Positions 1,868-33,035 of a DNA stretch of 64,000 nucleotides are shown here, in pieces. The notes below the pieces were generated by a model. The model ran no database searches, was not told where the DNA came from, and saw nothing but the letters and a program-made list of their open reading frames with translations. The stretch covers positions 800,001 to 864,000 of the forward strand of contig OZ219816.1 in assembly GCA_964291235.2 (NCBI GenBank). The letters run 5' to 3'. Both the position numbers and the translations under genes were made by a program. The first letter of the stretch is position 1; each line of letters starts with the position of its first letter. This DNA comes from Vicinamibacteria bacterium. GTDB lineage: Bacteria > Acidobacteriota > Vicinamibacteria > Marinacidobacterales > Marinacidobacteraceae.

Positions 1868-1922
1868 GCCCCCACTATAGGACCGGGGCGGTGACAAATC
1901 CCGTCCGGTCGCAATGGGGCCA

Positions 1923-2954
1923 TCAGGCGTGCGGAAGCCCACGCGTTGCCACGCGAAACCACATCCGGAGAGCGAAGTCCCAGCGGGCCAGGACGCTCGT
2001 CACCACCACCACGGCGCCGACGCTGAACGGGGACACCCGCACGTTCCGGCCGCGGCGGAAGGAGCGCGCCGTATGCACCCGCCGGAGCGCGAGCAGGGCC
2101 ATCCCCAGCGCCCACAGCAGGTGCCGGCGGATCCCGGTCTCGCGGGCAGGTATGAGCAGGGTGAATTCGAGGGCGTCCCCGAGGTGGCGCCGGGTGATTC
2201 CCACCAGTTGGGACAGCCCCGCCGCGAAGCCCGGAGCGTTGCCGCCGGCGCCAAGGTCGCTCAGATCGAATCCCGCCGCGTCGAACACGGTTCGCGGAAG
2301 CCAGCAGGCCCCCTGGGCCCGGTCATCCCACAGGTCCTTGAGGATGTTGGCCATCTGAAGTCCCTGAGCATGGGACCTGGCGAGCGCAACCAGTTCCTCG
2401 CGGCGCTCCCCGACGGCCGACGAGTAGTCGCAGAACAGCTCCACCAACATTTCGCCGACGACGCCGGCGGCGAAATAGCAGTAGCGGTCGAGCTGCGCCA
2501 TGTCCTTCAGGCCGATGGAGGGCGCATCCTGTTGGAACTCGACCATGCCGTGCGACATGGTCCGGATGCAGCGCTCGATGGCCATTCGCTGCCTCGGGCC
2601 AAACCCGGCCGTCACACGTACGACCCGGGCCGTGTTCGCGGCGAGGTGGTGCTCGGCCTCGGCGGTCGCCGGGGAGAGCGCTGGCGTCAGGTCGCCGGCG
2701 AAGGCGGCGGCGTCTTCTTCCCCGGCCACCACCCCGACGAAGCGCGTCCAGAGCGCCTGTTTCCGGGCGCGGGAAAGTTCCGGCTCGTCCTCGATGGTGT
2801 CCGCAATCCGGCAGAGCAGGTAGGCATTCCCCACTACGTCCCGCAGGCCCTCGGGCAGCACCGGAATCGTGAGCGCGTAGGTGCGCGAGACGGACTGCAG
2901 GATCTCCCGCTGGTAGGCCAGATCGCAGTCCGGGCCGGCTGGGGACGACCGCAG
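1923..2954 (-). CDS. Squalene/phytoene synthase family, single-enzyme squalene synthase type
   Basis: Motifs YQREILQSVSRTYALTI (flap), LCRIADTIEDE, LDRYCYFAAGVVGEML, GLQMANILKDLWDD and CWLP. The conserved N-terminus lies upstream of the track's GTG at 2861. Start tentatively placed at CTG 2954, which has GGAG 6 nt upstream. Confidence 0.88.
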   Translation of the reverse strand: MRSSPAGPDCDLAYQREILQSVSRTYALTIPVLPEGLRDVVGNAYLLCRIADTIEDEPELSRARKQALWTRFVGVVAGEEDAAAFAGDLTPALSPATAEAEHHLAANTARVVRVTAGFGPRQRMAIERCIRTMSHGMVEFQQDAPSIGLKDMAQLDRYCYFAAGVVGEMLVELFCDYSSAVGERREELVALARSHAQGLQMANILKDLWDDRAQGACWLPRTVFDAAGFDLSDLGAGGNAPGFAAGLSQLVGITRRHLGDALEFTLLIPARETGIRRHLLWALGMALLALRRVHTARSFRRGRNVRVSPFSVGAVVVVTSVLARWDFALRMWFRVATRGLPHA

Positions 2955-2966
2955 TTCTGACTCCGT

Positions 2967-4181
2967 CTACCAGGTCTGTGTTTCGTCGGAGTGCAGCTTC
3001 GGCGGAAGACGGTAGGAGATCAGCGGATCGCGGAGCTCGGAGTTGTCCACGAGGGCGGTGAATCGGTCCACCTTCACCTTCGCTTCCCAGCGCGGCACCA
3101 CGCTGCGCAGCCGCTTCGCCAGGCGGCGTTTGGTCCGCAGGTACCAGAGCAGCCCCCAAGTGGACTGCGCCGGGTAGTTGATCTGGTCGGCGAGTTCGTC
3201 GCCGATGAGGGCGCGGGAAACGCGGTACACATAGTTGGCGAGGTTCTGCCGGTCCCTGGGCTTGTGGATGCCGATCACGACGGGCGCTGAATTGACCAGA
3301 GCGTTCGCTATCACGATGCCTTCCATGGTCGGCCGCGGCTCGCAGGCGATAGCAATCCGGCAGAGATCGAGCGCCTCCGCCTCGCTCCTGAACAGGATCG
3401 TTTCCGGAACGCCCATCAGGTATGCCGAGTAGCGCCAGATCTGGACGAACGCTTCGCTCTCCTCCGCCGTCGGCTCGGCGCCGAGCCGCTTCGCTGCCTC
3501 GATCACCCGCGCGGAGAAGTTGGCCGCCGCGAGCGCCACGTGACCGATATGGATCGGCACCCCGACTTCCGCCTCGTCCCACTCCTCGGATCTCCTCAGG
3601 AAGTATCGAACCTGGGCGTGGATGAGCCGGATCCGGACACTCAGTTTCCAACCCTCGCCGTAGCGTTCGAGTCCCCCCGGAATCATGATCTCGATGAGTT
3701 GGCGGATGTTCTGCCGGAGCCGGCGGACCCCGTGGTCCGTCAGCCTCCCGGTCATGAAGAACGACTTGCTGATGAGGGTGGTGAAGCCCCAGACGATGCT
3801 CGATCCCACCAACGCCTGGACGTAGAGATCCGAGTCGGCATGGAACGCCCGGCATCCCGGACAGACCGCTCGCGAATCGAACCAGTCCGGCTTGTCGGAA
3901 CTGAATTCCATGAGCTCCCTGAGTTCCGCCGACGCGTCCCGAAAGCCGGCCTCGTCCTCCTCCATCCCCGCCGTGATGATCTCGTGGACCCGTTTCTGGG
4001 GCATGCCGACCATGGACTCGACCGCCGCATCCGCGAGCGGGTCCCCCTTCGCCGTGTGCTTGATATAGCGGCGCGCCGCCTCCGGATCGGTCCAGCGCGC
4101 CTTCTCGTAGCCGGTGCGGTACGCGGTCGGAACAACGATCTCCGGAGATCGCGGTGCGGATCGCTCCTGGCGCGTGGACAT
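2967..4181 (-). CDS. MpaB/Lcp-like oxygenase family protein (DUF2236, rubber oxygenase catalytic domain)
   Basis: GDPLADAAV, PDWFD, TGRL...RRL, GGLERYGEGWKLSVRIRLIHAQVR (heme His motif), W...GVPI, WRYSAYLMGVPE. Confidence 0.82.
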   Translation of the reverse strand: MSTRQERSAPRSPEIVVPTAYRTGYEKARWTDPEAARRYIKHTAKGDPLADAAVESMVGMPQKRVHEIITAGMEEDEAGFRDASAELRELMEFSSDKPDWFDSRAVCPGCRAFHADSDLYVQALVGSSIVWGFTTLISKSFFMTGRLTDHGVRRLRQNIRQLIEIMIPGGLERYGEGWKLSVRIRLIHAQVRYFLRRSEEWDEAEVGVPIHIGHVALAAANFSARVIEAAKRLGAEPTAEESEAFVQIWRYSAYLMGVPETILFRSEAEALDLCRIAIACEPRPTMEGIVIANALVNSAPVVIGIHKPRDRQNLANYVYRVSRALIGDELADQINYPAQSTWGLLWYLRTKRRLAKRLRSVVPRWEAKVKVDRFTALVDNSELRDPLISYRLPPKLHSDETQTW

Positions 4182-4229
4182 GCTATGACCGACCGAATCG
4201 ACCGGAATGACCGAAACGCCCGAAGTGGC

Positions 4230-4490
4230 CGCGCGAACTGTATACCTGACTCATTTCGACGTACGCCCTTGGCTATGGCGGGACCGGACGCTATCTCTTC
4301 CCCGCGGCAACCCGAAGCCGGCGCCAGCCATGCTGTAGCGGGCGGGAACGATGAGCGGAGTCAACGGGATAGCGAAGGCGGGCGACCTCGGCGAAGCACT
4401 CCCGGGAGGCGCGCTTGCCCGCCGCAAGGCAGGTCCGGCTCGTCTTGGATGGTGTCCGTGATGCCGCATCGCAGATAAGTGTTTCCACCG
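4230..4490 (-). pseudogene. Chimeric relic: squalene-synthase fragment joined to an RND last-helix fragment (copy A)
   Basis: 4431-4489 reads GGNTYLRCGITDTIQDEPDL versus VGNAYLLCRIADTIEDEPEL at 2776-2833. About 4310-4380 reads AFAIPLTPLIVPARYSMAGAGFG versus RND AFATLVTLLIVPALCSLADDAFG. Aligns with 7951-8195. Confidence 0.8.
4236..4250 (-). promoter_or_regulatory. Conserved 15-mer GTCAGGTATACAGTT with a TACAGT -10-like hexamer upstream of the oxygenase gene
   Basis: Identical to 7957-7971. About 55-65 nt upstream of the start codon in both places. Confidence 0.5.
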
Positions 4491-4611
4491 GCCCCGCCAT
4501 GCCGCGTCAGAGGCAGGGGCCGCTGGAAAACGGCCCAATGGAGACGCAAGCGAGAGCACGACTAGAGTAGTCGAATAGGGGTGGCGATTTCGGGACTCTC
4601 AACAACATTCA

Positions 4612-4710
4612 ATGATGAAAGCGCGGCTTTCTGAGAACGGCGGCTGGCCGGCGGGTTCCGCGAACTGCGCGCGAATACCTCGATGAGCACGGGATCGACG
4701 AATCGCTGGT
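4612..4710 (+). pseudogene. Possible remnant of a third FAD oxidoreductase paralog
   Basis: MMKARLSENGGW resembles MTRPRFPESGEW at 8313. REYLDEHGIDESL (4670-4708, another frame) resembles GEYLERLGAPESL. Sits at the equivalent position after the duplicated spacer. Confidence 0.4.
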
Positions 4711-4730
4711 TAGTCCGAGCAGGCCCCGCG

Positions 4731-7700
4731 TCACCGTAAGGAGTGCCGTCCGCCGGCGGCAAGGCTGTATAGGGCCGGGACGATGAGAAGCGTCACGAAC
4801 GTGGCGAAGGCGACCCCGAAGGCGAGCGAGGCGGCCATCGGAATGAGGAACTGCGCCTGGATGCTGCGTTCGGCCATCAGCGGCGCGAGCCCGGCGAAGG
4901 TAGTCACCGAGGTAAGAATGATGGGGCGGAAGCGAAGGGGTCCCGCGGCGAGCAATGCCTCCCGGGTGGACGCCCCGTCGCGGCGGGCCCGATTGACGAA
5001 GTGGAGCAGGACCAGGGCGTCGTTCACCACGATCCCCACGAGTGGGACCATGCCGAGGAAACTCGGCATGGAGAGTTCGACCCCCATGATGACGTGGCCA
5101 AAGATGGCGCCCGCGAGACCGAACGGCACCGCGGCCATGATGACGAACGGCTGGATCCAGGAGGAAAGCGGAACGGCAAGCAGGACATAAATCAGGATCA
5201 GGGCGAACAGCAGGTGCCGCCTGAGGGCCTCCAGGGTTTCGGCCTGGTCCCCGGCAAGGCCGACAACTTCGAACCGGAGGTCGGGGAACCCCTCCTGAAG
5301 TTGCGAGAGCCCTCGACTGCGGAGATCGCTCAACAGGGCTCCTGCGGAGGCGACGGCCGGGTCTACGTTGGCGTGGACGGTGACCGCCCGTCGGCCGTCC
5401 ACTCGGTGGATCAGGGCCAGCCTCTCGGTTCGGACGACCTCCGCGACCCCGCCGATGGGCGCCGCCACCCCATCCGCCCGCCGCACCCGCATTTCCGTCA
5501 CGCTCTCCGGGCGGGTCCGCTCGCTCGCCGGGTATCGCAGCAGAATCCGGATCTCGTCGCGACCCCGCTGGATTCGCTGGACCTCTTCCCCGTAGAAGGC
5601 CTGGCGGAGTTGCTTTCCGAACTCGGCCGCGCCGATGCCGATGCCGGCGCCCTCGGAGCGGACTCGCGCGACCAGTTCCGGGGCGCTCCCTTCAAGGTCG
5701 TCAGTAACCGCAATGACCCCCCGGTATTCGTCGAACAGCGCCCGGAGCGCCGCCGACCCGTCCCGGAGGCTCGCCATCGTGCTCCCGCTGACCCGAACCG
5801 AGATGTCCGCCCCCTCTCCCAGGAACGAGGTCACGACCGCGACCTCCGCGCCGTGCGGCAGCGAACTGGCAAGGGCGCGCAGCCGGTCGCCAATCTCGCG
5901 GGTCGTGAAGCCGGTCCGCCGCTCGGGGGGGATGAGTTCCAGCACCACCTGGCCGATCGTCGTCCCGGCGCCGCTCCCCGACCCTCCGAAGACGCCGCCG
6001 CTCGGATCGGCGGCCAGCCGCTGCCCCACGATGGCCGCCAGATTCTGCTGCGGGTCCACACCGTACTCCTCGCGTATCTGTTCGCGAATCCGGGCAACGG
6101 CGGCTTCGAGTTCCGCGACCGCTTCCGCCGTGGCGCCGGCCGGGGAACCCGGCGGCAGCGAAACCTGGGCGGTCACCAGATCGCTGTCGAACGGAGGGGT
6201 CGGCTCCACCGGCACCCAACCCCCAGCCACCAGACCGCCCGCCAGGGAGAGGGCCCCGATCCCCAGCGCGACCGTCGCCAGCCGGTTGCGCAGTGACCAG
6301 GCGAGGGCGGGGCGGTAGCAGGTGTCCCGGGCCCAGGCGAGCGCGCTCTGAAGTGCCGTCCGGAGGCGCGCCAGGCGGGGGTTGCCCCGGACCGCGAGTC
6401 CGCCGTGGGCGAGGTGGTGGGGCAGGATCCAGGCTGCTTCCAGGAGCGAGAAAGCGAGCACCGGAATCACGATGCGGGGGAGCGTCCCCATGAGTTCGCC
6501 CCAGATTCCCGGCAAGCCCAGGAGCGGTGCGAACGCCGCCATGGTGGTCAGGACGCCGAAGGCCGCCGGAAAGAGCACCTGCCGTACTCCCTGGACGGCA
6601 GCCTCCTCGGCGTCCGCATTCCCCGTGGAGGCATGGCGTTCGACGTTTTCTCCGACGATGATGGCGTCGTCCACGACGATCCCCAGGGTCAGGATGAACC
6701 CGAAGAGACTGATCATGTTGACCGTGACCCCGAGCCCCGGCATCATCAGGAACGCGCCGAAGAACGCCACCGGAAGCCCGGCGGCGGTCCAGACGGCGAG
6801 CCGGCTCGACAGGGTGAAAAAGAGGACGAGGAAAATCAGCGCCAGCCCCTGAAGCCCGTTCCGGACCAGCACGTCCATCCGACTCTCGAAGAGTTGCCAG
6901 GCGTCGAACCAGGTACGGACCGAGAGTCCTTCCGGCAGGGCGCTCTCGACGGCGCGGATCTCGGCATGGACCGCGTTCGCGGTGTCGAGGAGGCGCGCGC
7001 CGGGAGCCAGCATCACCTCCATCAGCACCGCGGGCTCCCCGTTCATCCGCGCCGCCCGCTCCACATCGGCGAAACCGTCGGTTACGGCCGCAATGTCCCC
7101 AACTGTGACCACGCCGCCGCCGGGCGATGCGATCAGCGCAATGCCGGCGAAGTCCTCGGCGGTCAACGCCTCCGCCTGGGTGCTCACCCGCAGCTCTCCG
7201 CTGGCCGCGCGGATTGCGCCACCCGGGACGTCGGCCGAGCCGCGGCGGATGGCGGCGGCGACCTGGTCGAAGGTGAGCCCGAAGCGGGTGAGGACTTCCT
7301 CCGGGATCTCTATGGAGATCTCGTAGTCCCGCCCCGTGACGATCTCGACCCTCGCCACTCCGGTGACGGGGGCGAGCGCGTCCCGGACGCGGTGGGCGGC
7401 CTCGGTAAGCGTGCGCTCATCCGCTTCGCCGTGCACCGCAATCCGGAGCAGGAAGCGGTTCGGGACCACCTCCGAGATCACCGGTTCCTCGGCGTCCTCG
7501 GGGAGCGTGGTCGAAGACTCCACCCGCTCCCGAACCTCGTCGCTCACGCTCCGGAAGTCGGCCCATCGCTCCACCTCGATCGTGAGGACCCCGAGTCCCT
7601 CGGCCGCCACCCCGGCGACCTCCTTGATCCCCGAGATGTCGCGGAGGGCCTCCTCCAGACCGAGGAGAACACCCTCCTCGACGACTTCCGCCCCCGCGCC

Positions 7701-7895
7701 CGGGAAAACGGTCCTCACGGTCAGGGCCGAGGATTGCGTCTCGGGGATCATCTCCTGCGGAATCCCGGAGGCAACGAGGAGGCCGCCCAGCGAAATTCCG
7801 AACAGCAGGAGATTCGCTGCCACCCGGTTTCTGACGAACCAGGAAATCACGCCCGCGAGCGAGCGCGTTCCCACGGACGACGAAGGCGTTTCCAC
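4731..7895 (-). CDS. RND efflux permease, AcrB/AcrD/AcrF family (paralog 1)
   Basis: WFVRNRVAANLL, GIVVDDAIIVGENV, GIVVNDALV, RFRPIILTSVTT. Start moved to GTG 7895 (VETPSS, matching MDTPSS of paralog 2, with GAGGG upstream). Confidence 0.93.
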   Translation of the reverse strand: METPSSSVGTRSLAGVISWFVRNRVAANLLLFGISLGGLLVASGIPQEMIPETQSSALTVRTVFPGAGAEVVEEGVLLGLEEALRDISGIKEVAGVAAEGLGVLTIEVERWADFRSVSDEVRERVESSTTLPEDAEEPVISEVVPNRFLLRIAVHGEADERTLTEAAHRVRDALAPVTGVARVEIVTGRDYEISIEIPEEVLTRFGLTFDQVAAAIRRGSADVPGGAIRAASGELRVSTQAEALTAEDFAGIALIASPGGGVVTVGDIAAVTDGFADVERAARMNGEPAVLMEVMLAPGARLLDTANAVHAEIRAVESALPEGLSVRTWFDAWQLFESRMDVLVRNGLQGLALIFLVLFFTLSSRLAVWTAAGLPVAFFGAFLMMPGLGVTVNMISLFGFILTLGIVVDDAIIVGENVERHASTGNADAEEAAVQGVRQVLFPAAFGVLTTMAAFAPLLGLPGIWGELMGTLPRIVIPVLAFSLLEAAWILPHHLAHGGLAVRGNPRLARLRTALQSALAWARDTCYRPALAWSLRNRLATVALGIGALSLAGGLVAGGWVPVEPTPPFDSDLVTAQVSLPPGSPAGATAEAVAELEAAVARIREQIREEYGVDPQQNLAAIVGQRLAADPSGGVFGGSGSGAGTTIGQVVLELIPPERRTGFTTREIGDRLRALASSLPHGAEVAVVTSFLGEGADISVRVSGSTMASLRDGSAALRALFDEYRGVIAVTDDLEGSAPELVARVRSEGAGIGIGAAEFGKQLRQAFYGEEVQRIQRGRDEIRILLRYPASERTRPESVTEMRVRRADGVAAPIGGVAEVVRTERLALIHRVDGRRAVTVHANVDPAVASAGALLSDLRSRGLSQLQEGFPDLRFEVVGLAGDQAETLEALRRHLLFALILIYVLLAVPLSSWIQPFVIMAAVPFGLAGAIFGHVIMGVELSMPSFLGMVPLVGIVVNDALVLLHFVNRARRDGASTREALLAAGPLRFRPIILTSVTTFAGLAPLMAERSIQAQFLIPMAASLAFGVAFATFVTLLIVPALYSLAAGGRHSLR

Positions 7896-7950
7896 TGGGG
7901 TTCCCTCGAACCTGAGGTGGTCCGACTGCTGGCGAATCTCCCGGACCGAC

Positions 7951-8195
7951 CGCGCCAACTGTATACCTGACGCATTCCGGCGTATGCCTTGGCCATGGCC
8001 GGACCGGGGCGGGAACGGGCGCTGACTCCTGCCCCAGCAACGGGGATCCGTCGTCAGCCAGGCGTTAGAGACCGGGAGCGATGAGCAGGGTCACCAGGGT
8101 GGCGATGGCGAGCGACCTGGGCGAAGCACCCCCGGGGCGCGCATTTCCGCGTCGTGGGAAAGGTCCGGCTCGGCGTGGGTGATATCCGTGACGTG
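7951..8195 (-). pseudogene. Chimeric relic: squalene-synthase plus RND last-helix fragments (copy B)
   Basis: 8051-8109 reads AIATLVTLLIAPGL*RLADD and matches 11386-11444 at about 43 of 59 nt by hand. 8157-8191 matches the synthase DTIEDEPEL region. Colinear with 4230-4490. Confidence 0.8.
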
Positions 8196-8312
8196 GTGTA
8201 ACAACCAGCCGTTTTCAAGGGCTCTTCGATATCTCATGAGTGGCACCAGTCATTCAGTAAAGGCACAATAGAGAGATATCTGCAATGAAAATCCTGGAAT
8301 TGGAACCAATTC

Positions 8313-9713
8313 ATGACACGCCCGCGATTTCCTGAGAGTGGCGAGTGGATGGAATCCAGCAGAATCGTCATCATCGGAGGCGGTCTCGCCGGGCTGAGCG
8401 CCGCCTACACCCTGAGAAAGCGCGGCCTGCGTCCCGTGCTGCTCGAGGCGGGCGACCGGGTGGGCGGACGCGCGCTCGGCGACCGGGTGGACGGCTTTGC
8501 GCTGGATGCGGGTGCGGACTTCTTCTGCTCGTCCTACGACGTCGCGTTTCGCATCTGCAAGGAACTGGAGTTGCCCCTGCTTCGTTCAAAGATGAACCTT
8601 GGCTGGTACAGAAACGGGCGATGGGTGCTGACGAGGCCGCCCGAGTCCATTGCTGCCGTCACCCGGAGTCTCAAGGCGTTCTGGGTGTTGGGCTTCATGT
8701 CGCCCCGCGTAGTCTGGTCGTTCGCAAGGTTGGCCCGGGAGATTCGCCAGCACTCGGACTACCTCAGTTTCGCTGGCGACAGCCGCATCGTCGAGCTTGA
8801 CGGGGAGGAGACTTTCGGCGACTACCTGAACAGGCTGGGAGTGCCCGAGTCCTTGAAGGTGACGCTCCGTGGATTCCTGGAGATGACGATGGGCCGTGTC
8901 GAGCGCTCCGGGGCGGCGTACATGCGGACCTATCTGGCGGAGATGCTGCTGAAGAGCGATCAGCTCTACGTGCCGGAGAAGGGCGCGGGCGCACTCACCC
9001 GCGCCTTGGCCGAGGCATGCGGCGACACCATTCGGGTCTCAACGCCGGTCCGGCGCGTCGTCATCCGGGATGGGCTGGTGACCGGGGTCGTGACGGGTCA
9101 CGGCCTTGTGGAGGCGGACGCGGTCATCTGCGCCATCCCCGCCACCAGGGTCTCGGACATCATTCCCGACCTGCCGGCCGGGGTTCGGACCACGCTCGAC
9201 AGCGTCAGCTATTCGAGCGGTTGCCGCGTGGTGATCGGCCTCGACCACCCGCCGCTTCCCCCGGGATGGCACGGCGCGTTGTACCCCGAGGACGACACCC
9301 CGCTCCTGCTCGACCGGTCCATCAACCTGCCCGCATGCGCGCCGCCCGGCAAGAGTACTCTGGATCTGCTCGTGGGTCGCGGCCGTGCCGAGGAACTGCT
9401 GCCGCTGGACGATGAGGAGATCAAGCGCCGAATGCTCGCCGACGTGCGTCGCAATCCCCCTCCGGGGTCGGCGCTGCCGAGCGACGACGAAGGGCTGTTT
9501 ACTCGCATCTACCGTTGGCCGGAGGCCGTGTGCATGGCACGGCCGGGCATGTTCAGGAAGGTGGCGGACATGCGTCGTCAACTCGGGGGAGAGGTAAGGA
9601 ACCTCTTCCTAGCGGGTGACTACCTGCGGGTACCGTCGGTCAACGGCGCTCTGGCGAGCGGCGTCGGAGCGGCCGGTGAGGCGGCGGACCTGGTGGTGTC
9701 TCAGCGGGCTTAG
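8313..9713 (+). CDS. FAD-dependent oxidoreductase, flavin amine oxidase / protoporphyrinogen oxidase-like family (paralog 1)
   Basis: IIGGGLAGLSAA, LLEAGDRVGGR, DAGADFF, C-terminal LAGDY...SVNGALASG. Alternative start at ATG 8349. Confidence 0.88.
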   Translation: MTRPRFPESGEWMESSRIVIIGGGLAGLSAAYTLRKRGLRPVLLEAGDRVGGRALGDRVDGFALDAGADFFCSSYDVAFRICKELELPLLRSKMNLGWYRNGRWVLTRPPESIAAVTRSLKAFWVLGFMSPRVVWSFARLAREIRQHSDYLSFAGDSRIVELDGEETFGDYLNRLGVPESLKVTLRGFLEMTMGRVERSGAAYMRTYLAEMLLKSDQLYVPEKGAGALTRALAEACGDTIRVSTPVRRVVIRDGLVTGVVTGHGLVEADAVICAIPATRVSDIIPDLPAGVRTTLDSVSYSSGCRVVIGLDHPPLPPGWHGALYPEDDTPLLLDRSINLPACAPPGKSTLDLLVGRGRAEELLPLDDEEIKRRMLADVRRNPPPGSALPSDDEGLFTRIYRWPEAVCMARPGMFRKVADMRRQLGGEVRNLFLAGDYLRVPSVNGALASGVGAAGEAADLVVSQRA

Positions 9714-9771
9714 GCTCAGGAAGGGTTCACGGACAGTTCGGGCTGCGCCGGACGGATGAGATCCCCGCTGT

Positions 9772-9899
9772 CCCGCGCGGGTGGCGTCGATCGTGAGAAT
9801 GATCGGCCGGAAGCGCCGGGTGGAGTTCGCGGTCCCGGTATCGATCCTCGCGATGACCCACTCTCCCTCGCCTCGGGAAGCGGTGCGAACGCCGACATG
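9772..9899 (-). pseudogene. Collapsed RND permease relic made of three colinear micro-fragments
   Basis: Hand alignments: 9772-9818 vs 11524-11570 (41/47 nt, RRFRPIILT); 9820-9872 vs 12693-12746 (about 46/54); 9879-9899 vs 6523-6543 (20/21, MAAFAPL). Confidence 0.85.
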
Positions 9900-9973
9900 C
9901 AGGATGGGTTGACCCATCGGCTTCCTTCCGGTGTACTGGCTTGGTGAACGGTCCGTTGCCTCCGAGAGGGTGG

Positions 9974-11338
9974 GTGGATTCCAGCAGAATCGTCATCATC
10001 GGAGGAGGCCTCGCCGGGCTGAGCGCCGCCTACGCCCTGGGGAAGCGCGGCCTCCGTCCCGTGCTGCTCGAGGCCGGCGACCGGGTGGGCGGACGCGCCC
10101 TCGGCGACCGGGTGGACGGCTTTCGGCTGGATGCGGGTGCGGATTTCTTCTGTTCGTCCTACGATGTCGCCTTTCGGCTATGCGAGGAGTTGGGGGTGTC
10201 CCTCCTGCGCTCGCAGATGAACCTCGGCTGGTACCGAAACGGCCGTTGGGTTGTTACGAAGCCGCTCCAGTCCCTGGGTGCTGCCCTCACGGATCTGCGT
10301 TCCTTTCGGGCGATGGGGGTCTTTTCCCCGCGTTCCGCTTGGGCGCTCCTGAGGCTCGTCGGGGGAATCCACCGACAGGCGAGTTACCTCAACTTCCGGA
10401 GCGACTGCCCCATCGCGGAACTGGACGCGGAGGAGACCTTCGGCGAGTACCTGGAGCGGCTGGGCGCCCCCGAGTCGCTGAAACTGCTCCTCAAGGGGTT
10501 CCTGGAGATGACGATGGGTCGCGTCGAGCGCTCCGGAGCGGCGTACATGCGTACCTACATAGCCGAGATGCTGTTGAAGAACCACCTCATCTACGTGCCG
10601 GAGCGGGGCGCCGGCGCGCTCGCCCACGCCCTGGCCGCGGCATGCGGCGACGCTATTCGGGTCTCAACGCCGGTCGGGCGCGTGGTCATCCGGGACGGGT
10701 TGGTGACCGGGGTAGCGACGGGTCACGGCCTCGTGGAGGCGGACGCGGTCATCTGCGCCGTGCCGGCGACCCGGGTGCCGAACCTCATTCCCGACCTCCC
10801 GGCAGGGATTCGTCACGCGCTCGACAGCGTCAGCTATTCGACTGGTTGCCGCGTGGTGATCGGCCTCGACCACCCGCCGCTTCCCCCCGGATGGCACGGC
10901 GCGCTGTACCCCGAGGACGACACGCCGCTGCTGCTGGACCGCTCCATCAACCTGCCCGCGTGCGTGCCCCCCGGCAAGAGCACTCTGGATCTGCTCGTGG
11001 GTCGCGGCCGCGCCGAGGAACTGCTGCCGCTGGACGATGAGGAGATCAAGCGCCGAATGCTCGCCGACGCGCGTCGCAATCCCCCTCCGGGGTCGGCGCT
11101 GCCGAGCGACGACGAAGGGCTCTTTACCCGCATCTACCGTTGGCGGGAGGCCGTGTGCATGGCCCCGCCGGGCATGTTCCGGGCGATGTCGCAAACGCGC
11201 CGCAGGCTCCGCCGCGAGGTCCCGAACCTCTTCCTGGCGGGCGACTACCTGCGGGTGCCTTCGGTCAACGGCGCCCTCGCCAGCGGCTGCGCGGCGGCCG
11301 GCGAGGCGGCGGATCTGATGCGATCCCAGCCGGCGTAG
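9974..11338 (+). CDS. FAD-dependent oxidoreductase (paralog 2)
   Basis: Same motifs as 8313-9713 with long near-identical stretches. Start at GTG 9974 after GAGAGGG (the track gives 9941). Confidence 0.88.
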   Translation: MDSSRIVIIGGGLAGLSAAYALGKRGLRPVLLEAGDRVGGRALGDRVDGFRLDAGADFFCSSYDVAFRLCEELGVSLLRSQMNLGWYRNGRWVVTKPLQSLGAALTDLRSFRAMGVFSPRSAWALLRLVGGIHRQASYLNFRSDCPIAELDAEETFGEYLERLGAPESLKLLLKGFLEMTMGRVERSGAAYMRTYIAEMLLKNHLIYVPERGAGALAHALAAACGDAIRVSTPVGRVVIRDGLVTGVATGHGLVEADAVICAVPATRVPNLIPDLPAGIRHALDSVSYSTGCRVVIGLDHPPLPPGWHGALYPEDDTPLLLDRSINLPACVPPGKSTLDLLVGRGRAEELLPLDDEEIKRRMLADARRNPPPGSALPSDDEGLFTRIYRWREAVCMAPPGMFRAMSQTRRRLRREVPNLFLAGDYLRVPSVNGALASGCAAAGEAADLMRSQPA

Positions 11339-11354
11339 GTGGGCTTCGGCTCGT

Positions 11355-14300
11355 TCAGGGGGTCCTGCGGAAGACGCCGAAGGCATCGTCGGCGAGGCTG
11401 CAGAGCGCCGGCACGATCAAGAGAGTGACCAGGGTGGCGAAGGCCACGCCGAAGGCGAGAGAGACGGCCATCGGCACCAGCAGTTGCGCCTGGACACTCT
11501 GCTCCAGCATCAGGGGAGCAACCCCCGCGCAGGTGGTGACCGTCGTGAGCATGATCGGCCGGAAGCGCCGCGGGCCCGCCCGGAGCGCCGCCTCGGTGGC
11601 CGACAGGCCGCGGCGGCGCTCCCGGTTGAAGAAGTCGAGCAACACGAGGGCGTCGTTCACCACGATCCCGACGAGCGGCACCATGCCGAACACGCTCGTC
11701 ATGGACAGGTCCATGCCCAGGAGCGCGTGACCGAAGACGGCGCCCGCCAGGCCGAACGGAACCGCGGCCATGATGACGAACGGCTGGGTCCAGGAGGAAA
11801 GCGGCAGTGCCAACAACATGTAGATGAGCAGCATCGCGAGGAGGGCATTCCGACCGAGCGCCGCGAAGGTCTCTTCCTGCTCCCCCGCCATCCCCACCAC
11901 CTCGAAGAGAAGATCCGGGAAGCGTTCCGAGATCGCGGGAATGGACCGGTCGCGGACCCCGCCCAGCACGGCCGCTGGTGAGGCGAGAGCCGGGTCCACG
12001 CTGGCATGAACCGTGGCCGCCCGCCGTTCGTCCACCCGCTGGATGACCGGCAGGCCGTCCTCGCGGGCGAGTTCCGCGACCTGCTCAAGCGGCGCCCGGC
12101 TGGTATCGGGCCGCCGTACCTGCATCTCCCTGAGGCTGCCCAGGTCCTCGCGGCCCGCCCGTGAATAGCGAAGAAGAATCGGTACCTCGTCCCGTCCGCG
12201 CTGGATCCGCTGGATTTCCTCGCCGTGGAACGCCTGGCGCATCTGCCTGCCGAACTCCGCGGCGCTGATCCCGATCCCGGCGCCCTCCGGGCGGACGCGG
12301 GCAACGAGTTCGGGGGCCGGATCTTCGAGGTCGTCCCATGTGGAGACCACCCCCCGATAGTCGCGCAGCGCCGATTGGAAGGCAGCCGAGGCTTGCCGCA
12401 GTTCGTCCATGTCGGCGCCGCTGATGCGCACCGAGACGTCCGCGTCCTGGCCGAGTATCGAGGTCGACACACTCGCCTCGGCACCGTGCGGGAGGGTACG
12501 GACGGCAGCGCGCAGTTCATCGGCGAACTCTCCGGGCGAAAGCCCTACCTGCTCTTCGGCGGGGATCATCTCCAGCATCAGTTGCCCGATCGCCCCACCG
12601 GAACCGGCGGCCGCTCCTCCGGCGGGTCCGCCGGGCCCGAAGGACAGGGTCTGTCCCGTCAGGACGGCGAGATGGAGTTGCGGGTCCGCGCCGTGGAGTT
12701 CGCGATCCCGGTATCGAATCTCCGCGATGGCCGACTCCACCTCGCCGACCGCTTCCCTGGTCGCCTCGAAAGAAGAGCCCGGCGGAAGGGAAACCCGGGT
12801 GACCACCACATCGCCGTCGATGGGGGGGGCGGGGTTGACGGGAATCCAGCCCCCCTCGACCAGCCCCATCGAAAGGGCGAGGGAGAGGACCCCGAGCGCC
12901 AGGGTTGTCAGCCGGTTTCTCAGAGACCAACCCAGCACCGGCCGATACAGGGTGTCCGCGGTCCATTGGAGCCCCGACTGGATCCGCGCGCGCAGGGCGG
13001 CCACCCGGCGGCTGGGACGGACAGCCAACCCGCCGTGCGCCATATGGTGCGGCAGGATCCAGGCGGCATCCAGCAGCGAGAAGGCGAGCACCGGGATCGC
13101 GACGCGCGGCAGCTGCCCCATGACCTCGCCCCAAAAACCCGGCAGGCCGAGAAGGGGGGCGAAGGCGGCCATCGTGGTCAGGACCCCGAAGGCCGCCGGA
13201 AAGAGCACTTCGCGCACACCTCTGAGGGCCGCGGCTTCCTTGTCCCCCTTCGCCCCCGAGGTATGCCGCTCGATGTTCTCCCCGACGACGATGGCGTCGT
13301 CCACCACGATCCCGAGGGTCATGATGAACCCGAACAGGGTGAACATGTTCACGGTGACGCCCAGTCCGGGCATCATGAGGAAGCCCCCGAAGAATGCCGC
13401 CGGGAGGCCGGCGGCGGTCCAGACCGCGACCCGGCTCGAAAGGGTAAGGAAGAGCAGCAGGAAGATGAGCGTGAGGCCCTGGAGGCCGTTGCGAACCAGG
13501 ACATCCATGCGACTCTCGAAGAGAACGGCGGCGTCCAGCCAGGGAGTCACCTGCAGGCCGCCGGGCAGCGTGATCTCCCGCACCGCCGAACGAACGTCGG
13601 CGGCGGTTTCGACCAGGCGCGCCCCCGTCGCGAGCAGGACGTTCAGGAACACCGCGGGCTCGCCATCCATCCGCGCGATCCGATCGACGTCGGCGAACCC
13701 GTCGGTGACGGTCGCCACGTCCCCGACGGTCACGACGCCGCTTCCCGGAACGGCGATCAGCGGAATCCGGGCGAAGTCCTCGGCGGTCACCGCTTCTGCT
13801 TCCGTCCGGAACCGCACCTCCCCATCTCCCGTGCGGATCGCGCCGCCCGGCAGGTCCGCGGAGCCGCGCCGGAGAGCGGCGGCAACCTGATCGAGCGTCA
13901 GCCCGAATCGGGTCAGTACATCCCCCTCGATCTCGATCGCAACCTCGTATCGCCGACCGCTGACGATCTCCACCCTGGCGACTCCCGGCTCCGCGGAGAG
14001 CACCTCCCGCACCAGGTGCGCCGCTTCCGTCAGACTGCGTTCGTCGGCTTCGCCGTGGACAGCCACCCGGAGCAGCAGCCGCTCGACCGCCACTTCGGAA
14101 ATCACCGGATCTTCGGCGTCCTCCGGCAGGGTCGCGAGAGACTGGACGCGCTCCTTCACCGTGTCGGTGACGCGCTGGAATTCGGCCCAGGACTCCACCT
14201 GGACGGTCAGCAGACCGACGCCCTCGGACGCCATACCCGCGATCTCCTTGACGCCCGACACGTCGCGGAGAGCCTCCTCGAGGCGAAGCAGCACGCTCGC

Positions 14301-14519
14301 CTCGACGACCTCCGCGCTGGCTCCCGGGAAGACCGTGCGGATGGAGATTCCCGAAGTCTCGGTTTCGGGAATCAGCTCCTGCGGTACCCGTCCGACGGTG
14401 AGAAACCCCGCGACCGAGATCCCGAGCAGCAACAGATTCGCTGCCACCCGGTTCCGGACGAACCACGCGATCACCCCCCGCGAGGGTTCGGCCGCCGGGG
14501 TGGACGACGGGGTGTCCAA
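11355..14519 (-). CDS. RND efflux permease, AcrB/AcrD/AcrF family (paralog 2)
   Basis: GIVVDDAIVVGENI, GIVVNDALVLLDF, RFRPIMLTTVTT; 1054 aa. Confidence 0.93.
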   Translation of the reverse strand: MDTPSSTPAAEPSRGVIAWFVRNRVAANLLLLGISVAGFLTVGRVPQELIPETETSGISIRTVFPGASAEVVEASVLLRLEEALRDVSGVKEIAGMASEGVGLLTVQVESWAEFQRVTDTVKERVQSLATLPEDAEDPVISEVAVERLLLRVAVHGEADERSLTEAAHLVREVLSAEPGVARVEIVSGRRYEVAIEIEGDVLTRFGLTLDQVAAALRRGSADLPGGAIRTGDGEVRFRTEAEAVTAEDFARIPLIAVPGSGVVTVGDVATVTDGFADVDRIARMDGEPAVFLNVLLATGARLVETAADVRSAVREITLPGGLQVTPWLDAAVLFESRMDVLVRNGLQGLTLIFLLLFLTLSSRVAVWTAAGLPAAFFGGFLMMPGLGVTVNMFTLFGFIMTLGIVVDDAIVVGENIERHTSGAKGDKEAAALRGVREVLFPAAFGVLTTMAAFAPLLGLPGFWGEVMGQLPRVAIPVLAFSLLDAAWILPHHMAHGGLAVRPSRRVAALRARIQSGLQWTADTLYRPVLGWSLRNRLTTLALGVLSLALSMGLVEGGWIPVNPAPPIDGDVVVTRVSLPPGSSFEATREAVGEVESAIAEIRYRDRELHGADPQLHLAVLTGQTLSFGPGGPAGGAAAGSGGAIGQLMLEMIPAEEQVGLSPGEFADELRAAVRTLPHGAEASVSTSILGQDADVSVRISGADMDELRQASAAFQSALRDYRGVVSTWDDLEDPAPELVARVRPEGAGIGISAAEFGRQMRQAFHGEEIQRIQRGRDEVPILLRYSRAGREDLGSLREMQVRRPDTSRAPLEQVAELAREDGLPVIQRVDERRAATVHASVDPALASPAAVLGGVRDRSIPAISERFPDLLFEVVGMAGEQEETFAALGRNALLAMLLIYMLLALPLSSWTQPFVIMAAVPFGLAGAVFGHALLGMDLSMTSVFGMVPLVGIVVNDALVLLDFFNRERRRGLSATEAALRAGPRRFRPIMLTTVTTCAGVAPLMLEQSVQAQLLVPMAVSLAFGVAFATLVTLLIVPALCSLADDAFGVFRRTP

Positions 14520-14547
14520 GACGTGAACCCGGCCCCGACCTAGCGGC

Positions 14548-15741
14548 TCACTGCGGGTCTGAGGCCAGCGGCACTTCGTTGGCGGCTTCCACCAACGCCA
14601 CCCGCACCTCCATACCCTCGGTCACGATCGCGGGAGGATTCGTCACCACCCGCTCCCCGTCGCGGAGGCCGGCGCGCACCAGCAGGTTGCCGTCGCCGGA
14701 CGACCAGAAGGCGTCCACCTCACGGATCCGGATTCGGTCCCCGCTGTCCACCACGAGCACCCGTCCGTCCTCCCGGAACGCACTCCGCGGAACGACCGCG
14801 ATCTCCGGATACTCCCGACCCTCGATTTCGGCGCGCACGAACATCCCGGAGACCAGCGGGGGACGCCCCTCCGGTCCCGGCCCGTTGGGGTTCCTCACCT
14901 CGATCACCGCGGGGAAGAATCGCGTGGCGGGGTCCACCTCACCTTCCATCCGAACCAGCCGGCCTTCCCAGGTCCACGTGGACGACGCGAGCGCCGGTCC
15001 CAGGACCGCCGTCAGGCGCGCCCGCGGCCCCTGTCCCGAAGAAGCGCCTCCGAACGGAAGTTCCACCAGTTCGAGCGCGGCATCGGGCAGGGACACGCGT
15101 GTTTCCACCATATCCACTGCGAGCAGCTCGAGAAGCGGGACGCCGGGCGCGGCCCATTCTCCGACCTCTGCGTTCCGCTTTCCCACGAGGCCGGTGTGCG
15201 GCGCCCGCACCTCGGTCCGTTCCAGATCCCGCTCTGCCCGCTTGACCGCTGCCTCCGCGGCGGCAAGCGCCGCCCGGGCCGCCGCGAGTTGGGGAACCCT
15301 CAGCGCCAGCGGATCCGGCTCGGTCCCTTCTCCCGACCACTCCTCCTCCGCGAGCCGAGCCAACCCCTCTTCGGTCCGCAGCCGCAACCGGGTCGCTTCC
15401 AACTGGCTCTTCGCCTGGGCCACCGCGTGCTCATACGCCAGGGGTTCGATGCGGAAAAGGGCCGCTCCCTCTTCAACCCGATTTCCGTCCCGGAGGCCCG
15501 CGGCGGCCCACACCACCTGGCCTGCCACTTCGGCCGCGACGGTCGTTCGGTGTGCCGGACGCACCGCACCGTCGGCGCTCACCGTCACGCGGTGTGGTCC
15601 CACCCGGACGCGAACCGCGCGCACCTCCGGGGTCACGGTCTGAATTTCCTGGGCTTCGGGCTTCGGCCCGAGCGCCGTGAGCAGAGCCACCAGCACCGCC
15701 GCGGCCAGCAAAATGGGAATGAAGAGGAACTTCCGGAACAT
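14548..15741 (-). CDS. RND periplasmic adaptor (membrane fusion protein)
   Basis: N-terminal anchor, AEVAGQVV, LERTEVRAP.TG.V, GMFVRAEIEG, GLRDGERVV. Start overlaps the OMF stop (TGATG). Confidence 0.92.
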   Translation of the reverse strand: MFRKFLFIPILLAAAVLVALLTALGPKPEAQEIQTVTPEVRAVRVRVGPHRVTVSADGAVRPAHRTTVAAEVAGQVVWAAAGLRDGNRVEEGAALFRIEPLAYEHAVAQAKSQLEATRLRLRTEEGLARLAEEEWSGEGTEPDPLALRVPQLAAARAALAAAEAAVKRAERDLERTEVRAPHTGLVGKRNAEVGEWAAPGVPLLELLAVDMVETRVSLPDAALELVELPFGGASSGQGPRARLTAVLGPALASSTWTWEGRLVRMEGEVDPATRFFPAVIEVRNPNGPGPEGRPPLVSGMFVRAEIEGREYPEIAVVPRSAFREDGRVLVVDSGDRIRIREVDAFWSSGDGNLLVRAGLRDGERVVTNPPAIVTEGMEVRVALVEAANEVPLASDPQ

Positions 15742-17246
15742 CAGCGGGGACTCCCCGTCGAGCCGTCGGCCCCCGCCGGCGCGTCACCGTTCGCGCGTTC
15801 GAACCCGCCCCCGAGCGCCAGCGACAGGTTCACCCGGTTATCCAATCGAGCCCGCACCCGCGAGAGATGGCCGGACTCCGCCATCAGGACCGCCCGCTCC
15901 GCATCAAGCTCCGCCAGCCGCGAAACGAACCCGCTTCGACGCTGGGCCCCGGTTCGCGTCAACGCCCGCTGGCTCGCGGAAAGCGCCTCGGCCGACCGTG
16001 ACTCCACCTCGGAGAGCGCTTCCTCCGCTGACAACGCCGCTTCCACTTCTTGGTACGCCGTCAGAACCGTCCGGGCGTACACCGCGAGCGCCTCCCGGTC
16101 CCGCGCCTCCTCGTGGCGGATCTGCGCCCGGATGCGCCCCCCCTGGAACACCGGCGCCGCGATGCGGGCGATCAGGCTCCAGACCGAGAAATCCCCGTTT
16201 ACCAGGTCTTTCAGCCCGGTGGTGGCGGTGCCGGCCGAACTGGTCAGGGGGAACTGCGGATAGCGCGCCCGCCGCGCCATTTCGGTGAACTCCTTGGACA
16301 TCGCGAGCCGCCGCTCCGCGCTCGCCACGTCCGGACGCCGGGAAATGAGATCCGCCGGCGCCCCTGCCGGGACCGGGCTCCCGACCGCGGGAAGGCCGCC
16401 TCCGAGTTCCCAGTCCGGCCCCGGTTCCCCGTCGGGATAGTCGGTGAAGAGCACTTCGAGGCCCCGCACCGCCGCGGAAACCGCTTGGCGGCGGCTGGCG
16501 GCAGTCGCCCGCGCCTCGGCGAGCCGGGCTTTCGCGGCATCCACCTCGGCGAGCGCCGCTTCCCCGATCCGGGCCCGTTCGCCGGTCCACCGCACCGTCT
16601 CCTCCAGGCTCGCCGTGATTTCTTCGGCGATTCGGGCCTGTTCCCGGGCTTCGACCGCGAGGAAATACAGGCGTGCCGCCTGCCCCGCCAGCGAGACCCG
16701 CGCCCCTGCGACCTCGGCCACCGCCGCTCCCACCACCGCATTCGCGGCCCGCGCCCGCGGCGACGCCGCCCGCCAGAGATTCGCTTCCCAGGTCAGATCG
16801 AGCGAGAGCCCGTAGCGAACGAAGTCGGCGGTAAGTACGTCTTCCTCTCCGAGTCCCGGGATCGGCAGCCCGACGGAACCCGCGATGTCCGAAATGGGCA
16901 GCCCGATGAAGGCCTGCCGCGCCTGGATGCGTTCCACCCCGGTCCCGATCTGGGGATAGAGCGCACTTCGCGCCACTCCGGCGTCCGCCGCCGCCTGGGC
17001 CAGCCGGGCGGCCGCCTCCTGAAGCGTCAGGTTTCCCGAGAGCGCTCGCTCCACCACGCCGTCGAGCGCCGGATCCCCGAACGAGGTCCACCAGTCCGCC
17101 GCCGGCGTCTCGGCGACTTCCACGACCGCCGGTGCGGGGGTGAACTCGACCTCCGGGTCCGAAACGGGAATGCGCAGGCCGCCGCAGCCGAGGCAAAGCG
17201 AGACGGTCGCTCCGAGCGGGAGAAGGCGCTGTGCGGCGGTTCGCAT
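15741..17246 (-). CDS. Outer membrane efflux lipoprotein (NodT/TolC family)
   Basis: Lipobox-like LCLGC, WWTSFGDPALD, PADLISRRPDVASAERRL, LSLALGGG. Start moved to ATG 17246. Confidence 0.9.
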   Translation of the reverse strand: MRTAAQRLLPLGATVSLCLGCGGLRIPVSDPEVEFTPAPAVVEVAETPAADWWTSFGDPALDGVVERALSGNLTLQEAAARLAQAAADAGVARSALYPQIGTGVERIQARQAFIGLPISDIAGSVGLPIPGLGEEDVLTADFVRYGLSLDLTWEANLWRAASPRARAANAVVGAAVAEVAGARVSLAGQAARLYFLAVEAREQARIAEEITASLEETVRWTGERARIGEAALAEVDAAKARLAEARATAASRRQAVSAAVRGLEVLFTDYPDGEPGPDWELGGGLPAVGSPVPAGAPADLISRRPDVASAERRLAMSKEFTEMARRARYPQFPLTSSAGTATTGLKDLVNGDFSVWSLIARIAAPVFQGGRIRAQIRHEEARDREALAVYARTVLTAYQEVEAALSAEEALSEVESRSAEALSASQRALTRTGAQRRSGFVSRLAELDAERAVLMAESGHLSRVRARLDNRVNLSLALGGGFERANGDAPAGADGSTGSPR

Positions 17247-17390
17247 AACGAGTGCCCGGAGTGTATTCGCTCGGCTCCGGCGGGCGTCGGAGCGTCCCGC
17301 CCTGTTGAAGGCAGAACCCCGGGTCGCGTACGATCGTGGGTTCAGACTGTGCCAATTCCTGGGCTTCGGCCTGTGCCATCGGAGGCTTTC

Positions 17391-24760: not shown

Positions 24761-25014
24761 CGTGACGCTGGCGGGGTCGCGCCCGGCGCGCTCCCGCCGG
24801 CCAGCCGCCCGGCTCGGTCCGGTCTGCGCCGCCGGCGCTTCCTACCTTCGCGGACGTCGGTGCTTCAGGCGCCGCTAGCCGGTTCGGAGCCGGCGCAAGC
24901 CGCATTCCGGCGGCGCTCGGTCCAGCCGTCCCTGTGCCGGGGCGGTCCGACGCCGTCCGGAACCGTCTCCGGGTCGCGGCGGGCCGTGCGGCCCGGAAAC
25001 GCCATAATTCCGGG

Positions 25015-25356
25015 ATGAGCGAGCTGGCGAGCAGGAGTTGCGTTCCGTGCCGGGGCGGGGTGCCCCCGATGGATTCGGCGGAGGTGGAGAACTACCTCGG
25101 CAGGATCGAGGGATGGGGACACGCCGAACACCGCCGGATTTCCCGAACGTTTGTCTTTCCCGACTTCGTGAAGGCGCTGGGTTTCGCGAACCGGGTTGGC
25201 GAGATCGCCGAGACGGAAGGGCATCACCCCGATCTGCTGGTCGCCTGGGGGCGCGTCGAGGTCACCATCTGGACCCACAAGGTGAACGGGCTCACCGAGA
25301 GCGACTTCATCCTCGCCGCGAAGATCGATCGCCTCTCCCGCGGCGCCGCGCCCTGA
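25015..25356 (+). CDS. phhB: Pterin-4-alpha-carbinolamine dehydratase
   Basis: CVPCRGG, FPDFVKALGFANRVG, AETEGHHPD, WTHKVNGLTESDFILAAKID. Start moved to ATG 25015. Confidence 0.93.
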   Translation: MSELASRSCVPCRGGVPPMDSAEVENYLGRIEGWGHAEHRRISRTFVFPDFVKALGFANRVGEIAETEGHHPDLLVAWGRVEVTIWTHKVNGLTESDFILAAKIDRLSRGAAP

Positions 25357-25448
25357 CGGGCCTCCTGACAAACTCCCTGACGCACCTCGCGACGAACCGC
25401 GGCAGCACCCAACGTTCGCCGCCGGATTCTCCCGCTCCGGCATAGGCC

Positions 25449-32858: not shown

Positions 32859-33035
32859 GTCAGAACCTGGCCCCCCCGGCGGATCGCAACTCACACGAGG
32901 CCCTACGTTGGAGGCCAAGCAACGCGATCCGAGCCATCAGGGAGGGCTAAAAATCTTAGCAGAGCGCCGGTGTCCGCAGCGCCGCCGCGTACCCCGAGGT
33001 GGCCGGGGGAGTCGGATCCCCCCGAAAGGGACGAC

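Follow-up and report, generated by a model that had tools for sequence, protein, structure and literature searches.

A gene cluster in a Vicinamibacteria bacterium (Acidobacteriota; assembly GCA_964291235.2, contig OZ219816.1, positions 800,001 to 864,000 of the forward strand) joins a haem oxygenase of the MpaB/Lcp family (DUF2236) to a synthase of the squalene synthase (Sqs) type, two flavoproteins and a tripartite RND pump with two permeases, and probably represents an undescribed pathway that modifies and exports a lipid. The stretch of 64,000 nucleotides that was analysed, with a G+C content of about 69%, is called the window here, and coordinates count from its first letter. Tentatively, and at a little less than even chances, the locus is taken to be a rearranged, lineage-specific version of a recurrent, oxygenase-centred set whose products would build a C30 chain, oxygenate or cleave it, tailor it by redox reactions and export it, which would make it an isoprenoid cluster built on an unusual pairing of oxygenase and pump. 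A first-pass annotation, made from the letters of the window alone, had proposed a system of this kind, and several of its parts have stood: the associations recur in other genomes, the flavoproteins do not fall inside HemY, and the gene remnants that it saw in the spacers are real. What has changed is the picture of the locus, which is a recent patchwork and not a conserved operon, and that of the stable partner of the oxygenase, which is the transporter and not the synthase. The impression that the combination is not a described pathway agrees with the literature searched, in which no published description of an association of oxygenase, synthase, flavoprotein and pump was found; the papers that bring together DUF2236 and squalene deal with rubber, and one preprint names DUF2236 just in passing.

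The gene content proposed at the outset was located in full, and all eight genes were verified at their coordinates by Pfam and NCBIfam matches. Reading frames were picked by third-position G+C, and 55 open reading frames (ORFs) of the window were scanned against Pfam; small genes may escape this selection. From 1923 to 17399 the cluster contains:

1923-2966, minus strand: synthase, Sqs-type head-to-head prenyl synthase; frame open from 2966, annotated GTG form 1923-2861; Pfam SQS_PSY, 150 bits
2967-4181, minus strand: haem oxygenase of the MpaB/Lcp family (DUF2236); Pfam MPAB_Lcp_cat (PF09995), 63.5 bits, cut-off 23
4182-4730, minus strand: spacer with gene remnants; synthase and RND fragments, repeat copy 4212-4461
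4731-7958, minus strand: RND permease 1 (RND1); ACR_tran, 495 bits
7907-8312, no strand assigned: divergent spacer; repeat copy 7933-8191, RND fragment, inverted fragment of flavoprotein 1
8313-9713, plus strand: flavoprotein 1 (AO1), FAD Amino_oxidase family; annotated start 8349; Amino_oxidase, 153 bits
9714-9940, no strand assigned: spacer that separates AO1 from AO2; pieces of RND2 coding DNA
9941-11338, plus strand: flavoprotein 2 (AO2), FAD Amino_oxidase family; Amino_oxidase, 160 bits
11355-14519, minus strand: RND permease 2 (RND2); ACR_tran, 501 bits
14548-15741, minus strand: periplasmic adaptor (MFP); Pfam HlyD_3; TIGR01730, 152 bits, cut-off 94.9
15741-17399, minus strand: outer-membrane factor (OMF), NodT type; OEP, 97 bits; TIGR01845, 221 bits, cut-off 210

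When one genome per species was searched with the oxygenase alignment, 534 loci emerged, the best 80 of which (L001 to L080, all of them metagenome-assembled genomes, MAGs) were compared over up to 10 kb on each side. Partners were called from tblastn matches to 18 query proteins at E <= 1e-8 that covered 40% or more of the query, a procedure that can miss divergent partners. An RND-superfamily transporter lies within 10 kb in 48 of the 80 loci, of the AcrB type in 15 and of the MMPL type in 34, with both in one locus (L025); sulfotransferases are found in 11 of the 80, synthases and cytochromes P450 in seven each, and flavoproteins in six. Homologues are thus co-located elsewhere, an outcome on whose failure the first-pass annotation would have given up its idea. 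The transporters come in three architectures, spread over several phyla: OMF-MFP-RND-oxygenase in 11 Acidobacteriota loci (L001-L009, L022, L023), oxygenase-MMPL in 22 loci, mostly with a LolA_like and a DUF1302-like protein behind it, and MMPL-oxygenase in 12 loci of Dehalococcoidia/Chloroflexota. In the oxygenase tree (90 rows, quick search) the transporter types track the clades; synthase presence requires at least eight changes and flavoprotein presence six to seven, and both have been gained or lost repeatedly.

The 11 acidobacterial loci have a single permease and no flavoprotein, and only in L001 and L023 does a synthase follow the oxygenase. AddB is next downstream in L001-L009 and L022, except in L004, where the contig ends, and was not seen in L023. 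It follows from these closest relatives that the window has acquired its second permease and its two flavoproteins locally. In L023 (11239-13261), the oxygenase has next to it a tail-to-tail pair of Sqs-like paralogues, with identities of 60% and 52% to the window synthase. The oxygenases of L010 (titled Gammaproteobacteria) and L012 (Gemmatimonadetes) fall with almost zero branch length inside a clade of an Acidobacteriota paralogue, which may be a binning error.

The full set of six families (oxygenase, synthase, flavoprotein, RND, MFP and OMF) recurs in L015 and in the Rhodothermales loci L053 and L076. In L015, P450-RND-MFP-OMF and flavoprotein-oxygenase-synthase-AddB occupy opposite strands, and in L053 and L076 an arrangement of (weak sulfotransferase)-synthase-oxygenase-oxygenase-flavoprotein converges on RND-MFP-OMF; the weak sulfotransferase match of L053 lies just upstream of the synthase. 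The pumps of these three loci form a separate RND clade in the tree, non-orthologous to those of the window, and the flavoprotein of L015 is just 38% identical to the window's. The six families have thus been assembled more than once from different stock, and this repeated assembly is the strongest argument for a joint function. The candidate system of the first-pass annotation holds to that extent, and its exact combination is unique to the window among the 80 loci. Oxygenase and synthase lie on the same strand, 62-184 nt apart, in L001, L015, L023, L053 and L076, with an oxygenase-P450-synthase order in L027, and of enzymes that form a carbon skeleton, only the Sqs-like synthase is found repeatedly beside the oxygenase.

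The oxygenase belongs to what is, judging from its sequence relatives, a small intracellular subfamily of MpaB/Lcp proteins without signal peptide, with 2655 representatives at E <= 0.001 and 145 at E <= 1e-30 among 1.84 billion proteins. The rubber oxygenase LcpK30 is its best match both in sequence (same Pfam family, 48 bits) and in fold: for the AlphaFold2 (AF2) model (mean pLDDT 80.6), an all-helical structure with a globin core, Foldseek finds the Lcp structures 5o1l/5o1m (TM 0.60-0.69, E 4e-7 to 6e-6), and as the next neighbour t-anethole oxygenase 8s1j (probability 1.0, TM 0.45-0.59). H188, R185, R192 and R154 stand in the alignment at Lcp His198, Arg195, Arg202 and Arg164, and none of the four varies among 18 family sequences; His198 is the proximal haem ligand and strictly conserved in Lcps (excerpt of PMC5522427). 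The differences from LcpK30, to which the identity is 19-21%, lie in three other positions and in secretion. Asn158, invariant in the family alignment, occupies the position of Thr168, so that the Arg164-Thr168 pair of rubber oxygenases is incomplete, and Ile137 and Gln157 replace Glu148 and Lys167 in a phmmer alignment that is weak around Glu148; Lys167 itself is conserved in just 59% of Lcps (PMC5522427, same excerpt). Lcp is secreted, whereas the N-terminus of the window oxygenase shows neither a hydrophobic stretch nor a twin-arginine motif (by inspection of the sequence), and many members of its family start right at the conserved core. As it has no signal peptide, the oxygenase is presumably cytoplasmic.

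The synthase has both Asp-rich motifs, DTIED and DLWDD, and its best NCBIfam model is squal_synth (TIGR01559) with 78.9 bits, under the cut-off of 286.75. Against the PDB its family profile scores 70-77 bits with SQS, 41-57 with CrtM/PSY and 29 with HpnC, and over the C-terminal third the alignment with solved SQS is poor. The earlier assignment to single-enzyme squalene synthases is borne out in that these are its nearest relatives; the NADPH-dependent formation of squalene from presqualene diphosphate is only putative. HpnC (63.7 bits, cut-off 250.45) and HpnD (66.4 bits, cut-off 278.6) were rejected as identities. It is the single synthase gene of the window, and neither an hpnCD pair nor a cyclase nor CrtI occurs among the 55 scanned ORFs, as had been noticed at first sight. 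The start of the gene deserves attention: the stop codon TAG of the oxygenase (2969-2967) is in the frame of the synthase, and no ATG, GTG or TTG follows before 2861. The form that starts at GTG 2861 (312 aa, entry P0121 of the protein collection) lacks about 35 residues with 11 positions that are invariant in the family alignment, among them 'SRTYALTIP', and the invariant residues D15-P35 of that alignment are encoded upstream of this GTG. A GGAG in the junction is followed, six bases on, by a CTG at 2954, which is the likely start and gives a form of 343 aa; it leaves a gap of 12 nt behind the oxygenase gene and implies that translation of the synthase is coupled to that of the oxygenase. 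No fusion of the two was seen among the best 150 representatives (the longest of 574 aa), and no search was aimed at longer proteins.

The oxygenase and the pump might also serve a different purpose, the tolerance or breakdown of foreign terpenoids, in which the oxygenase attacks incoming isoprenoids, the pump expels them or their products, as AmeABCD does when cells grow on monoterpenes, and the synthase is an independent gene that supplies squalene or a hopanoid precursor for the membrane. The constancy of the transporter (48/80), compared with a synthase in just 7/80, is in favour of this, as is the resemblance of the MMPL, LolA_like and DUF1302-like set beside the oxygenase to AmeABCD, which is needed for monoterpene tolerance (excerpt of PMC6394551). 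Tandem or dispersed oxygenase paralogues in L026, L030, L034, L039, L053, L066, L076 and L079, together with two-copy genomes, would fit a diversification of substrates. Against this, the oxygenase is without export signal, whereas rubber oxygenases are extracellular (PMC5522427, excerpt), the putative translational coupling of the synthase to the oxygenase and the recurrence of the pair in three phyla and three gene orders do not suit an independent synthase, and no genes of beta-oxidation or aldehyde dehydrogenases were found beside the window cluster among the Pfam-scanned ORFs. Tolerance of foreign terpenoids is thus regarded as unlikely.

The flavoproteins AO1 and AO2 are 79.8% identical, and the HpnE model TIGR03467 is the only one that aligns to them over the full length (1-428 of 430). 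With 85 and 101 bits they stay under its cut-off of 283, so that an identity as HpnE was rejected. The same holds for CrtI/CrtN (TIGR02734, crtI_fam; 38.6 and 39.7 bits, cut-off 238.1), which match in the first ~52 residues only, and for HemY (TIGR00562; 55-57 bits, cut-off 97.85), where the match is confined to the N-terminal ~75 residues (model ~3-82). A placement inside HemY, along with complementation of a hemY/hemG mutant, had been named at the beginning as a result that would speak against the proposed system, and the placement was not obtained. A profile search of the PDB gave 7eme, 8eef and PPOX as best matches, mostly over the FAD-binding N-terminus and with no functional lead, and the look-alikes of AO1 in the protein atlas are just generic clusters of 'FAD-dependent oxidoreductase / protoporphyrinogen oxidase family'. 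Orthologues of AO1 beside the oxygenase in L042, L053, L076 and L037 are 62-75% identical, and the adjoining oxygenases just 47-52%, which fits an independent recruitment.

The pump is a tripartite system of the HAE1 type whose three components share an operon: OMF, MFP and RND2 follow one another directly on the minus strand, RND2 being the last gene, which converges on AO2 with a gap of 16 nt. The MFP has an N-terminal hydrophobic anchor. The OMF probably starts at Met52, at 17246, which is also where the first-pass annotation had ended its cluster within the longest OMF ORF. RND1 and RND2 are 66% identical and fall in the same clade, both inside an acidobacterial pump clade of the tree, RND1 being the copy closest to the single permease of the relatives (up to 78%). 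Both have the motifs 'VVDDAI' and 'RFRPI', and they match generic RND models only, staying under the cut-off of NF033617 (427 and 410 bits against 1250). In their tenth transmembrane region, RND1 (4731-7958) and RND2 (11355-14519) also carry 'VVNDAL', at what would be the site of the proton-relay Lys of AcrB.

The claim that the spacers contain synthase and RND remnants could be substantiated by blastx: a synthase piece of 19 residues (4486-4430, minus strand; NTYLRCGITDTIQDEPDL) shows a DTIQD version of the first Asp-rich motif, and pieces of the RND C-terminus are found in all three spacers, e.g. at 4379-4302 and 8112-8050 (minus strand). The score of the synthase piece was reached by 0 of 200 dinucleotide shuffles, those of the two RND pieces named likewise by 0/200 and 0/200, and that of the RND piece in the AO1-AO2 spacer by 3/200. 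The synthase piece argues that a copy of the synthase was formerly also present on the upstream side of the oxygenase. A direct repeat of 261 nt flanks RND1 (4212-4461 and 7933-8191, 72% in a blastn self-match), with a fragment of the RND C-terminus in each copy, which suggests a tandem duplication of the permease plus its downstream spacer. Further blastn matches are pieces of RND2 DNA in the AO1-AO2 spacer (9772-9818 and 9813-9872, 87% and 84%) and an inverted 53-nt piece of AO1 at 7907-7959, just upstream of RND1. L001, the locus most like the window, has a Mutator-family transposase between two oxygenase paralogues (8425-9684).

Such a patchwork of duplications and fragments could mean that there is no functional unit at all, and that unrelated genes have been collected, in a recombination hot spot, by a multidrug efflux operon of generic kind that lies upstream of addBA. 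The transposase at the corresponding place in L001, the confinement of the layout to the window and the merely generic RND matches of the permeases fit this explanation, yet it leaves the adjacency of oxygenase and transporter in 48/80 loci, across phyla and in three unrelated architectures, without a reason, as well as the recurrence of the six-family set with non-orthologous pumps, and it is therefore considered very improbable.

Gene identities, physical linkage, the conserved haem-ligand and arginine residues and the recurrence of the associations across phyla are direct observations, and the favoured course of events is predicted from them, substrate, product and direction of transport included. 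The Sqs-type synthase would convert two farnesyl diphosphates to squalene or a closely related C30 compound. The haem oxygenase, whose translation is coupled to that of the synthase, would oxygenate or cleave a C=C bond of the C30 chain, the two flavoproteins, with HpnE as nearest model, may carry out a redox tailoring of the chain, and the OMF-MFP pump with its two permease paralogues would take the amphiphilic product from the inner membrane and carry it through the outer one. Synthesis, cleavage and export of a C30 chain are favoured because relatives of the oxygenase cleave C=C bonds, HAE3 relatives of the transporters move isoprenoids, and the Sqs-like enzyme is the only recurrent skeleton former. 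MpaB' of fungal mycophenolic acid biosynthesis cleaves a prenyl C=C and so shortens a farnesyl chain, a role named in Pfam PF09995, and anethole oxygenase cleaves the C=C of a phenylpropene, which is not an isoprenoid. Lcp cleaves the C=C of polyisoprene, acting like other rubber oxygenases extracellularly (PMC5522427, excerpt), and the characterised HAE3 transporters carry isoprenoids, monoterpenes in the case of AmeABCD and hopanoids in the case of HpnN (excerpt of PMC6394551).

The partner genes also permit the explanation that only the oxygenase and the transporter cooperate, on a lipid that is not an isoprenoid (e.g. an alkenyl or aryl-alkene lipid), the other neighbours (sulfotransferase, P450, acyltransferase, flavoprotein, synthase) being interchangeable and of various pathways. 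The partners indeed vary by clade (sulfotransferase 11/80, P450 7/80 and, in the P450 clade, an ankyrin-bearing Acyl_transf_3 protein), t-anethole oxygenase, a relative by structure, has a phenylpropene as its substrate, and Thr168 and Glu148 of Lcp are not conserved in the window oxygenase. Against this stand the Sqs-type synthase as the only recurrent supplier of a carbon skeleton next to the oxygenase and the isoprenoid substrates of the characterised HAE3 systems (PMC6394551, excerpt), and a non-isoprenoid lipid appears quite unlikely. As to the partners themselves, in L047 (11207-12826), and also in L055 and L058, a membrane Acyl_transf_3 protein that bears ankyrin repeats comes after the oxygenase, and behind it the P450, which is 66-71% identical across differently labelled phyla, and in 11 loci of at least five phyla (L038, L050, L051, L060, L061, L065, L067, L068, L071, L079, L080) a Sulfotransfer_3 protein stands beside the oxygenase instead of a transporter.

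Among known systems, MpaB' comes closest to the proposed role, as an intracellular enzyme of a biosynthetic cluster that trims a prenyl chain and shares the PF09995 domain; it is fungal and anchored in the endoplasmic reticulum, and is likened here by its described role. Bacterial squalene/hopanoid genes (Sqs or HpnCDE plus HpnN) likewise bring together a C30 head-to-head synthase, an Amino_oxidase flavoprotein (HpnE) and a lipid transporter of the RND superfamily, but the window has no cyclase, its synthase and flavoproteins stay under the cut-offs of Sqs, HpnC, HpnD and HpnE, and its pump is tripartite and HAE1-like. The route from squalene to C30 carotenoids (HpnCDE or Sqs plus CrtN/CrtP) feeds squalene to paired enzymes of the amino-oxidase family, whereas the window flavoproteins match crtI_fam N-terminally only, and CrtP, AldH and CrtQ were not found. 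AmeABCD of Castellaniella defragrans is an isoprenoid-dedicated RND-superfamily pump among genes of terpene metabolism, and its HAE3 permease, LolA-superfamily protein and DUF1302 outer-membrane protein have counterparts in the set that adjoins the oxygenase in 21-22 related loci (PMC6394551, excerpt); the window pump differs as an AcrAB-TolC-like OMF-MFP-RND system.

Several observations weigh against the synthesis and export of a modified C30 chain. The exact layout of the window is found in none of the 80 loci, the links of synthase and flavoprotein to the oxygenase are sparse, the nine close relatives L002-L009 and L022 have neither of the two, and 16 of the 80 loci have none of the partners, namely 11 loci of the acidobacterial paralogue and L024, L064, L074 (a 1.7-kb contig), L075 and L078. 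The synthase and the flavoproteins are so far under all curated equivalog cut-offs that the product of neither can be named, the synthase has no canonical start codon upstream of GTG 2861, no regulator, cyclase or other isoprenoid gene was found near the cluster, and the substitutions at Thr168, Glu148 and Lys167 may indicate a chemistry different from rubber cleavage. The Sqs family has been reported as prone to lateral transfer (excerpt of PMC7306690), so the adjacency of oxygenase and synthase may be incidental, and that paper, by Santana-Molina et al., reports no amino oxidases in Sqs neighbourhoods (PMC7306690).

The next ORF downstream (1942-2, 647 aa) was rejected as a member; it has no Pfam match, but its full-length relatives end with a PD-(D/E)XK nuclease domain and have a UvrD-type helicase gene behind them, which makes it AddB-like and sets the limit of the cluster. 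At the opposite end follow a divergent TPR protein and an M20 peptidase, and the remaining window is of housekeeping character (UvrB, IspH, ClpB, BamA, LysRS, NusB). A scan of 1800-17700 gave one promoter-like site where 0.9 were expected and three terminator-like sites where 7.4 were expected. Unrelated to the cluster, a pterin-4a-carbinolamine dehydratase lies beside a pyridoxal-dependent decarboxylase at 24766-26885, and a fused E1 alpha/beta 2-oxoacid dehydrogenase at 30615-32936.

In its most far-reaching form, to which we would give only a small chance, the proposal is that uncultured marine bacteria of several phyla exchange horizontally a set of genes with which squalene is made in the cell and cut by a cytoplasmic haem dioxygenase of the Lcp/MpaB type to shortened 'apo-squalenoid' aldehydes or ketones, which after a lineage-dependent tailoring (flavin redox, P450, sulfation, acylation) would be exported by RND-superfamily transporters. 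Apo-squalenoids would then be a new class of isoprenoid-derived bacterial signals or defence compounds. To our knowledge, bacterial DUF2236 proteins have an assigned function solely as secreted rubber oxygenases, so that this would be the first function assigned to a non-secreted one, and if the oxygenase cleaves squalene, there would be an enzyme for the oxidative splitting of squalene in marine bacteria, a reaction for which we know of none. In a survey of sponge-associated MAGs, terpene clusters are the most abundant class (30.2%), with two widespread families that match no known cluster (excerpt of PMC11832590), and the phylum names given in the records of the related loci overlap those listed there, which is only a lead. 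A core of oxygenase and transporter, with occasional synthase and tailoring partners, would offer a testable hypothesis for a terpene-type cluster.

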